From Candidatus Micrarchaeota archaeon (GTDB lineage Archaea > Micrarchaeota > Micrarchaeia > Anstonellales > Bilamarchaeaceae): a stretch of DNA of 64,000 nucleotides. This document shows positions 10,639 through 51,439 of this stretch, piece by piece. Positions within the stretch are counted from its first letter, which is position 1. Every line of letters starts with the position of its first letter. The notes below the pieces were generated by a model. It saw only the letters and a list, made by a program, of their open reading frames with translations. It had not been told where the DNA came from and did no database searches. A program made the translations under genes and the position numbers. The stretch spans positions 13,878 to 77,877 of the forward strand of contig JBFMCO010000028.1 of assembly GCA_040754495.1 (NCBI GenBank), given 5' to 3'.

Positions 10639-10734
10639 GTTGGTATTTTATTTTGTTCTGAAAAGAAGCATCGTAGCCAAACCTCAGGAAGTTTGATAAA
10701 AGATTTACCCTGGGAGTTGTCTCGGAAATCTTTT

Positions 10735-11031
10735 GCAGGGGTTGCCGAGTGGTCAAAGGCGCCAGATTCAGGTGCGCTTCCCTATTGAAACGATGTTTCA
10801 ATGGGGCCCAAAGAACGGTTCGCCGTTCTTTGTGGTTTGGAAAAAAGCGCCCAAAAACGGGCTGTTGAAAAATCCTTCCGGATTTTTTTGCAAGTCAGTT
10901 TTGGGCCGCCTCGTCGAGAACGGCGTTCCGTTCTCGATGCGCAAGAACGCTTCGCGTTCTTGGCTGTTTCCTAAAAGGCGGAAACGTCTGGTCGGTTAGT
11001 CCGTTCGAGAGTTCAAATCTCTTCCCCTGCA
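10735..11031 (+). tRNA. tRNA-Leu(CAG) with ~213-nt intron at 37/38 (10773..10985)
   Basis: Acceptor GCAGGGG/CCCCTGC-A, GAGTGG D-loop, anticodon stem CCAGA/TCTGG, long variable arm, GTTCAAATC T-loop; relaxed BHB at the junctions. Confidence 0.85.
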
Positions 11032-12937: not shown

Positions 12938-12974
12938 TTCCGCCTTTTAGTAAAAGGCGGCCCAAAACGGGCCG
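12938..12974. repeat. Double-hairpin element (CCGCCTTTTAGTAAAAGGCGG + CCCAAAACGGG) just past the glmU stop; related to modules in two tRNA introns
   Basis: Perfect inverted repeat; shares AAAA(A/G)GCG(G)CCCAAAA(A)CGGGC with 10841-10862 and 19686-19708. Confidence 0.65.
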
Positions 12975-14207
12975 TTAAACGTCCTCCTCGAACTTGCCGA
13001 ACTCAATTGGCTGCCTTGTATAGACGCGCGAGCCTGAGGGCACGTTCTTGTTCACCACGACTCCTGAATGAATCCAGCAGTTCGAGCCGATCAGCTTGCC
13101 CGGCATCGTGCAGGAGAGCACGCCGAATTTCGTGTTGTCGCCGACGAAAACGCCAAGCTTCTTCTTGCCTGAATTCGCCCATCCCCTCTCCGTGAGGACG
13201 TTCACGTTGTCGCCGTCGAAGCGGAAATTCGCGATTTGCGTGCCTGAGCCGAAATTGACATTCTCGCCTATCACGCTGTCGCCAATATAGGTGAGATGCT
13301 TGGCATTGACGGAATCAAGAAGGATGCTGCTTTTCACCGTGCTGCCCGGGCCGATTGAGCAGTTCTTCCCGATGCTGTTGAATCCCCGCAGGCATGCGTT
13401 CGGGCCTATGACCGTGTTTTCCCCTAGGTATGCGCACCCTTCCACGTAGCTGTTGATGATTCTCGCGCCCTTCTCCATGATTACCTTCCCTTCAATCGTG
13501 GAATTCTCGATGTGCCCGCTTTTCGCTTCCATCCCGGACAGCAGGTGCTCGTTCGCCTCGAGCAGGTCCCACGGGTACGCGATGTCCCGCCAGTAGCCTT
13601 CAACGGGCACGCCTTTCGCGCCGACAAAAAGGCTCACCAGCTCGTACTCGCCGCGCTCGGATTTCCCGAGGGATTTGAGCTCGCTGAACACGGTAGGCTC
13701 CATGCAGTATACCGAGAGGTTCGCGAGGTCGCTCTTCGGGTGCGCGGACTTCTCCTCGAAAAGGCTTATCCGCCCGCCCGAGAGCTCTGCCACGCCGTAG
13801 TTGTGCGGGTTCGCGACCTTCTTGAGGCCGACCGTGATTCCGCCCTCGTGCGCCTCCATGACCGCATTCATCACCGAAGCTTCGGTCACGATGTCGCCGG
13901 CAAGGGCAAGGAAGGTGTCGTCCAGCAGCTCCTGCGCGCACAGCAGCGCCGCGCCGGTGCCGTTGTCTGAGCCCTGCTCGACGAATTCGAGTTTCAGCCC
14001 GAGCCCGGCACTGGAAAGGTATTCGATGAGCTTCTCCTTCATGTGACGGACGACCACGACCGCCTCCTTCACCCCGGCCTTCTTCGCCTCGAGGAGAAGG
14101 TGGTGGATGATTGGCCTGCCGCCGGCGTAGAGCATGGGCTTGGGCCTCGTCTCGGTCAGGGGTCGCAGGCGCATGCCGTCCCCGGCTGCAAGAATCACGG
14201 CTTTCAT
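12975..14207 (-). CDS. glmU: Archaeal bifunctional sugar-1-phosphate nucleotidylyltransferase/acetyltransferase (GlmU-like)
   Basis: ILAAGDGMRLRPLTETRPKPM, hexapeptide repeats, GDNTKFG. Confidence 0.9.
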   Translation of the reverse strand: MKAVILAAGDGMRLRPLTETRPKPMLYAGGRPIIHHLLLEAKKAGVKEAVVVVRHMKEKLIEYLSSAGLGLKLEFVEQGSDNGTGAALLCAQELLDDTFLALAGDIVTEASVMNAVMEAHEGGITVGLKKVANPHNYGVAELSGGRISLFEEKSAHPKSDLANLSVYCMEPTVFSELKSLGKSERGEYELVSLFVGAKGVPVEGYWRDIAYPWDLLEANEHLLSGMEAKSGHIENSTIEGKVIMEKGARIINSYVEGCAYLGENTVIGPNACLRGFNSIGKNCSIGPGSTVKSSILLDSVNAKHLTYIGDSVIGENVNFGSGTQIANFRFDGDNVNVLTERGWANSGKKKLGVFVGDNTKFGVLSCTMPGKLIGSNCWIHSGVVVNKNVPSGSRVYTRQPIEFGKFEEDV

Positions 14208-30814: not shown

Positions 30815-30923
30815 GGGCCCGTGTGGCAACCTGGATAACCGGCAGGGCTTCGGATGCCTTTGACCGATTGCGGTCTTTTGCTGGAGCCACCCTGAGATGC
30901 GGGTTCAAATCCCGTCGGGCCCG
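30815..30923 (+). tRNA. tRNA-Arg(TCG) with 35-nt intron at 37/38 (30854..30888)
   Basis: GGGCCCG/CGGGCCC-G, CAGGG/CCCTG stem, CTTCGGA loop, GGTTCAAATCC; BHB helix CTTC/GGAG. Confidence 0.9.
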
Positions 30924-51334: not shown

Positions 51335-51439
51335 TGGGCCCACCCAGGATCGAACTGGGGATCTTCGCTGTTTGCTCTCTGCATGCCATGATGTCATGCA
51401 AACGTAAGAGCGACGTCTTCACCACTCGACTATGGGCCC
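51335..51439 (-). tRNA. tRNA-Val(TAC) with 32-nt intron, best placed at 36/37 (51372..51403)
   Basis: GGGCCCA/TGGGCCC-A, TCGCT/AGCGA, CCCAG-TTCGATC-CTGGG; an 8-bp intron helix supports a cut after C36, giving loop CTTACAC. Confidence 0.85.

Follow-up and report, generated by a model that had tools for sequence, protein, structure and literature searches.

A 213-nt intron in a Micrarchaeota tRNA-Leu(CAG) gene that appears to combine a family core with two inserted double hairpins

A tRNA-Leu(CAG) gene of a Candidatus Micrarchaeota archaeon is interrupted by an intron of 213 nt that is rich in hairpins. This raises the question of how such an intron came about, and whether the gene that carries it can still deliver a tRNA. 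The gene lies in the window analysed here, a stretch of 64,000 nt from an assembly of 1.63 Mb in 72 contigs that is about 80% complete. The genome holding the window is referred to as G000, C-numbers denote its contigs, and other G-numbers denote related genomes of the genus, for which the comparison set comprised 40 species-level genomes. With a probability of roughly 0.7, we regard the locus as a single functional tRNA-Leu(CAG) gene with a composite, protein-spliced intron at position 37/38, made up of a 102-nt core from an intron family and two double hairpins that were inserted later at the DNA level.

The interrupted gene and its orthologues

ARAGORN recovered the interrupted gene at 10735-11031, with its 213-nt intron, once the intron limit was set to 400 nt. 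The joined exons (10735-10772 and 10986-11031) give the cloverleaf of a regular class-II tRNA-Leu of 84 nt with the anticodon CAG. With default settings the same program reported no tRNA anywhere in the 64,000-nt window, and the Rfam tRNA model missed the gene at the gathering threshold as well as, in a search of this region only, at E-values up to 5. The suspicion of the preliminary description that standard tRNA finders may overlook this gene was thus well founded. Two further intron-bearing tRNA genes were detected in the window by Rfam (30815-30923 on the forward strand and 51335-51439 on the reverse strand); ARAGORN assigns them introns of about 35 and 32 nt, and misses both by default. 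A 248-nt intron that ARAGORN placed in a "tRNA-Glu" on C26 proved to be a false call in coding-like DNA; among the credible introns found in G000, none is therefore longer than the one of 213 nt. The gene is organised as follows:

10689..10709, forward strand: promoter motif of 21 nt at a distance of 25 nt from the start of the tRNA, recurring upstream of other class-II tRNA genes
10735..10772 (38 nt), forward strand: 5' exon, tRNA-Leu(CAG) positions 1-37, defined by the cloverleaf and 92-97% identical to intronless orthologues
10773..10985 (213 nt), forward strand: intron at the canonical 37/38 position, its borders set by intronless orthologues
10986..11031 (46 nt), forward strand: 3' exon, tRNA-Leu(CAG) positions 38-73, CCA not encoded, 100% identical to the G021 and G017 orthologues

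The promoter motif is found, at the identical spacing of 25 nt, before four more Leu or Ser tRNA genes of G000 (C9:27349, C31 on the reverse strand, C56:59794 and C71:14219), and the upstream regions of the relatives' Leu(CAG) genes align with it. Motifs resembling it also precede protein genes on C60 and C25.

The gene for tRNA-Leu(CAG) is uninterrupted in 14 genomes, where the sequence runs continuously across the junction predicted for G000. All 14 carry the spliced junction CAGG|GTCTGG that had been proposed beforehand, and together with the ARAGORN cloverleaf they confirm the intron at 10773..10985. Overall, the G000 exons are 92-100% identical to those of the orthologues. Introns of 51-54 nt with a strict 3-4-3 motif occupy the same 37/38 site in G001, G002 and G050; G024 belongs to this class as judged by match coordinates only, and G006 has a different intron, placed in the D arm. 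The 213-nt intron was found in no other Leu(CAG) orthologue of the genus. Likewise, no second copy of the composite intron was detected in the 40 genus genomes or in a metagenome scan with the 19-mer spanning the exon-intron junction, in which all 70 matches were to unrelated coding DNA and none to a tRNA.

These observations bear on the view that insertions have turned the gene into a pseudogene, with CUG codons being read by tRNA-Leu(UAG). The orthologues are indeed mostly intronless, and a tRNA-Leu(UAG) gene is present at C9:27396-27523 (with an intron in the variable-arm region, and miscalled as tRNA-Pro(agg) by ARAGORN). CUG might be covered by wobble reading of this tRNA, so the Leu(CAG) gene need not be essential. 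However, the exons, besides their close match to functional orthologues, have kept all conserved tRNA features, the promoter is intact, and CUG is heavily used, being the second most frequent Leu codon with 29 per 1000 in 773 long ORFs. The preliminary description had also considered a pseudogene that coexists with an intact Leu(CAG) gene elsewhere; this is unlikely, since no second Leu(CAG) gene was found in the approximately 80% complete assembly. The tRNA-Leu(CAG) gene is real and intact, and it is probably needed by the cell.

Modules and inserts of the intron

At least four perfect or near-perfect hairpins had been noticed in the intron, and all of those named could be located: 10780-10806 with a 12-bp stem, 10809-10832 and 10914-10937 with perfect stems of 10 bp each, and 10942-10962 with a perfect stem of 9 bp. 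A long, imperfect hairpin spans 10849-10906. The three hairpins that had been said to share an AGAACG/CGTTCT core were recovered as one family of direct repeats, D1. The pre-tRNA has a predicted folding energy of -139.6 kcal/mol, compared with -95.2 ± 4.6 for 200 shuffled sequences, none of which was as stable (z = -9.6).

Three readings of the intron were set aside. A box C/D guide RNA was rejected: a C box (RUGAUGA) is absent from both strands of the intron even when one mismatch is allowed, and a D box (CUGA) is absent from its forward strand, in agreement with the earlier remark that no C/D box was seen. A group I intron of tRNA-Leu was dismissed because no covariance model matched and because 213 nt falls short of the expected minimum of 250 nt. 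Rfam searches of the intron, both at the gathering threshold and at E-values up to 5, gave no match. The ORFs that overlap it lack Pfam matches, which disposes of a protein-coding intron and bears out the earlier impression that there is no credible ORF. The intron can instead be divided into the following parts:

10774..10779, forward strand: left end module A, first part; joined to 10836-10858 it forms a 29-nt module with one mismatch to the copy at C14:46139
10780..10835, forward strand: insertion I1, a 56-nt double hairpin (10780-10806 and 10807-10835)
10836..10858, forward strand: left end module A, second part; matched on the opposite strand by the nhmmer profile of the 3' module
10859..10897, forward strand: central hairpin B of the core intron, with a run of seven U at 10883-10889, similar to the C59 intron
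10898..10911, forward strand: right end module C, first part; with 10967-10981 it forms a 29-nt module identical to copies on C29, C46 and C59
10912..10966, forward strand: insertion I2, a 55-nt double hairpin (10914-10937 and 10942-10962)
10967..10985, forward strand: right end module C, second part, with a 4-nt tail predicted to pair with positions 32-34 of the anticodon loop

This division is based on excision. Deleting the 55 nt at 10912-10966 restores a 29-nt hairpin module of which three identical copies exist (on C29, C46 and C59) and 13 within two mismatches, and deleting the 56 nt at 10780-10835 restores the mirror module with its single mismatch to the C14:46139 copy. The last 19 nt of the intron and the 14-nt block 55 nt upstream of them are contiguous in many other tRNA introns of G000. 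Without both inserts the intron measures 102 nt, the usual size of the family, and is predicted to fold as a rod with its ends paired. A profile built from the 3' modules finds the 5' modules on the opposite strand in nhmmer searches, so that A and C are mutual reverse complements.

The core has many relatives. At E ≤ 0.02, 27 end modules in both orientations were found in G000, 15 of them within 13 tRNA genes predicted by ARAGORN; of the remainder, several belong to tRNA genes overlooked by ARAGORN or are solitary. The centre of the intron matches the tRNA intron at C59:8576-8654, with 86% identity over 76 nt to window positions 10836-10911 (pre-tRNA positions 102-177) and 89% identity in a 62-nt block, and it also matches an intron of G017, with 83% identity. 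Public genomes contain 60 stretches that match the 29-nt motif of the intron 3' end exactly, and those of the matching records that carry a title name only Micrarchaeota, Micrarchaeia, Bilamarchaeum/Bilamarchaeaceae or an unclassified archaeon. As judged by these alignments, the core belongs to a pre-existing intron family that is present in at least 13 tRNA genes of G000.

One of the solo modules lies close to the gene studied here:

12940..12968, reverse strand: solo 29-nt end module, a few bases past the stop codon of the nucleotidyl-transferase gene, matched by the module profile
12975..14207, reverse strand: nucleotidyl-transferase (GlmU-like) gene

The nucleotidyl-transferase gene immediately precedes tRNA-Leu(CAG), in the same orientation, in at least six relatives. 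The arrangement in G000 is different: the two genes are inverted and 1.9 kb apart, with the solo module at the breakpoint, which hints at a rearrangement that took place at a module. According to tblastn, the genes flanking the G000 locus are not kept beside the orthologues, save for a partial match in G002.

The two inserts are also found elsewhere, both inside and outside introns. In I1, a hairpin of the AGAACG type comes after a first hairpin whose base is conserved and whose top varies. The genomes G011, G047 and G048 have copies of this type in introns of other tRNAs, where they occupy precisely this site of the left module; the first 105 nt of the Leu(CAG) intron, I1 included, are 88% identical to an intron of G047. 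In G000, one copy is present in inverted order in the 190-nt intron of tRNA-Ala(CGC), and free copies exist on C25, C50 and C16. A double hairpin of the I2 type is found at the same end-module site in the tRNA-Val(GAC) intron of G000, to which copies at this site in introns of G047 and G018 are 92% identical, and also in a free-standing module of G010. The most telling copies are those in promoters: double hairpins lie inside the Leu(CAG) promoter of G019, G053 and G017, inverted in the latter, and the uninterrupted promoters of G000 and G022 have flanks that align with the filled ones. The elements in the G019 and G017 promoters are copies of I1.

Each insertion lies within a T-run whose T count is unchanged, and no target duplication is therefore seen. 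Since either orientation is possible, insertion would have been into DNA rather than RNA. The two inserts are precise insertions of dispersed double-hairpin elements, and the filled and empty sites strongly indicate that these elements are mobile. The double hairpins thus have the appearance of insertions made into T-runs at the DNA level, with no apparent duplication of the target, although their presence at the same site in several introns could reflect the spread of composite modules as units instead of repeated insertion.

A second family of double hairpins, characterised by the central 6-nt palindrome GCATGC, was observed at C16:2081-2134, C19:19579-19632, C24:495-548 and C44:13626-13679, as well as in locus L027 upstream of its tRNA. 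Some of these copies adjoin tRNA genes, namely tRNA-Arg on C24, tRNA-His on C44 and, in G053, Leu(CAG) at its promoter. In addition, a non-coding region near a contig end (C50:30540-30830) harbours an end module of the left type along with a double hairpin and additional hairpins, and contains no recognisable tRNA.

Could the hairpins instead have arisen in place, through local duplication or slippage of a single AGAACG hairpin in an older intron? Three hairpins of one intron do share this core, and 10824-10849 and 10955-10980 are direct repeats with 73% identity. Yet the first hairpin of I1 is unrelated to the hairpins of I2, closer relatives exist elsewhere than within the intron (the G047 intron and a full, inverted copy of I1 on C4, each 88% identical), excision restores both modules to the base, and the same elements are present in promoters of other species. 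The palindrome AGAACGS-N3-5-SCGTTCT has 47 sites in 19 of the 40 genus genomes, compared with two for a reversed control pattern, and three of the five sites in G000 fall inside the Leu(CAG) intron; within the genus it is thus a repeat of low copy number. An origin in place is quite improbable. The earlier proposal of growth by hairpin accretion stands in so far as the length comes from added hairpins, but these appear not to have multiplied in place, the intron being best described as a 102-nt family intron with two precise insertions of dispersed elements.

The extreme predicted structure (z = -9.6) might alternatively mean that the hairpins serve the RNA, with the excised intron forming a structured RNA that is stable and probably circular, or else a platform to which proteins bind, and having its own function. 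Excised archaeal bulge-helix-bulge introns are known to be circularised, and in an alignment of 11 copies of the I1 type five of the ten pairs of the first hairpin show compensatory changes that keep it paired. However, hairpins in DNA explain this covariation equally well. These hairpins are found in either orientation, and also in promoters and spacers outside introns, neither C/D boxes (C on either strand, D on the forward strand) nor Rfam matches were detected, and the orthologues manage without the intron. We consider a function of the excised RNA improbable, and favour the insertion of mobile double hairpins into a family intron.

Splice site and splicing enzymes

The inserts spare 7 nt at the start of the intron and 19 nt at its end, and the splice site should for this reason have remained undisturbed. 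The site does not conform to the strict 3-4-3 hBHBh' motif, but to a relaxed form. In the predicted canonical frame both 3-nt bulges are present, the central helix is made up of U:A, U:A and C:G pairs and one A·G mismatch, while the inner helix is 2 bp long; in a slipped frame the latter would have 5 bp, with a 5-nt bulge. The mismatch at 35:(n-5) recurs in the family introns of G000 tRNA-Val(GAC) and G024 Leu(GAG), whereas other family members are strict. In constrained folds, in which the D-stem coordinates were off by one and of which only the energy differences among the three folds were used, the BHB-competent folds lay 3.6-6 kcal/mol above the best cloverleaf-compatible fold. An oligo-T tract can terminate the archaeal RNA polymerase, and the run of seven U inside the intron could stop transcription early.

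Both the relaxed motif and the internal U7 run would suit a pseudogene. On the other hand, comparable family introns of 187-190 nt are present in other tRNA genes, two of them with the same kind of mismatch, and G000 encodes an endonuclease of the epsilon-2 type. Its 391-aa EndA, encoded at L021:889-2064, aligns end to end (residues 4-391) with 4FZ2, the structure of the epsilon-2 enzyme of ARMAN-2, at E = 1e-132. The ARMAN-2 enzyme cleaves strict as well as relaxed motifs (PMC3239211), and the G000 protein is a full-length orthologue, so that the same broad specificity may be expected of it by analogy. RtcB is also encoded in G000 (551 bits). Taken together with the intact exons and promoter and the heavy use of CUG, this makes an insertion-killed pseudogene very improbable. 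A second, short EndA-like protein of 168 aa is encoded at L022:1276-1782 (C31 of G000).

For the functional gene with a composite intron, the following course of events may be envisaged. The gene would be transcribed from its own promoter, and the two 29-nt ends of the intron, being reverse-complementary hairpins, are predicted to pair in the RNA. Positions 32-34 of the anticodon loop would be bound by the tail of the right module, and the paired ends and the tail pairing would together form the relaxed bulge-helix-bulge site. The epsilon-2 endonuclease would cut this site, whereupon RtcB would join the exons. Because the A-rich tail would pair with the near-universal pyrimidine-U at positions 32-33, it may explain how one family is found at 37/38 in many tRNAs. 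The 56- and 55-nt double hairpins would have been inserted later, one into the T-run of each end hairpin, thereby doubling the length of the intron. These inserts look like passengers: they would be removed by the host together with the intron, and would thus impose little cost.

Mobility and comparison with known systems

REP-like, palindrome-associated miniature elements are moved by Y1 (IS200/IS605-type) transposases. The double hairpins resemble them in being short hairpin elements that insert beside a short preferred sequence without target duplication. They differ in their setting, as no Y1 transposase was found in the approximately 80% complete G000 assembly, and no double hairpins were found at the ends of its four TnpB-like (Cas12f1-like_TNB) genes (C66:1722-1919 on the reverse strand, C5:28975-29172, C46:48913-49107 and C53:7361-7546). 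The copy on C66 is situated within about 0.7 kb of an intron-bearing tRNA-Glu(UUC) gene. Y1 transposase genes are present in 9 of the 40 genus genomes, and in locus L181 (G049:C3) a double hairpin of the I1 type at 244-298 precedes a Y1 (IS200/IS605-type) transposase frame at 400-870 by about 100 nt. We treat this link between Y1 and the double hairpins as a lead, not as evidence.

Related intron sequences in unrelated tRNA genes of one genome, which imply that introns spread, are reportedly also known from the Thermoproteales, where Fujishima et al. are said to have described transposed tRNA introns in 2010 (reference 29 of PMC3239211). The G000 introns differ in being about 100 nt long, in having ends that are mutually reverse-complementary hairpins, in the existence of solo ends outside tRNA genes, and in the smaller elements nested inside them. 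The tRNA-Trp intron of Haloferax and other Euryarchaeota is long (about 100 nt) and carries a box C/D guide RNA. It is likewise an unusually long, structured intron at or near the anticodon loop, but the Leu(CAG) intron of G000 lacks C/D boxes on the forward strand, has no evident guide function and is missing from most orthologues. A reference related to the tRNA-Trp intron is listed in PMC4090602.

The closest precedent is provided by the disrupted tRNA genes of ARMAN-2 (Candidatus Micrarchaeum acidiphilum), a member of the same phylum whose splicing enzyme has its orthologue in G000 (PMC3239211, PMC3488258, PMC12397907). Many tRNA genes of ARMAN-2, too, contain protein-spliced introns, and their bulge-helix-bulge sites include strict as well as relaxed ones. 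The two introns in the splicing assay of PMC3239211 are 13 and 25 nt long. In contrast to what was found in G000, the accessible portions of PMC3239211, PMC3488258 and PMC12397907 describe neither a conserved intron family with palindromic ends nor an intron of about 200 nt. The Leu(CAG) intron thus behaves like a relaxed-motif, protein-spliced archaeal tRNA intron in a lineage known for disrupted tRNA genes. What is new, relative to the available text of PMC3239211, PMC12397907, PMC4090602 and a 2026 Asgard preprint, is its length, the palindromic-end family and, above all, the nested second kind of small element with filled and empty sites in sister genomes.

The present locus shows one way in which archaeal tRNA introns grow. 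It offers datable events within one genus, from the intronless gene (14 species) and the 51-54-nt intron (four species) to the 213-nt composite of G000, in which both added pieces can be excised to the base, with filled and empty sites being found in the promoters of sister species. Other small elements can apparently land safely in a tRNA intron. Since routine annotation will miss such genes, the tRNA sets of genomes will look incomplete. With this locus, a natural substrate that makes high demands also becomes available for the epsilon-2 endonuclease, an enzyme of known structure.

A bolder reading, which we regard as less likely than not, would make the tRNA introns of the Micrarchaeota mobile DNA elements, small and palindromic. 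With their paired ends and A-rich tail they would imitate a splice site in whichever anticodon loop they entered, and the broad-specificity endonuclease of the host would make their insertions harmless, while a second tier of double hairpins, possibly moved by Y1 transposases on single-stranded DNA, would colonise the introns. If this is true, the intron of the Leu(CAG) gene would be a parasite nested at two levels, and would illustrate concretely how archaeal tRNA introns arrive and grow.
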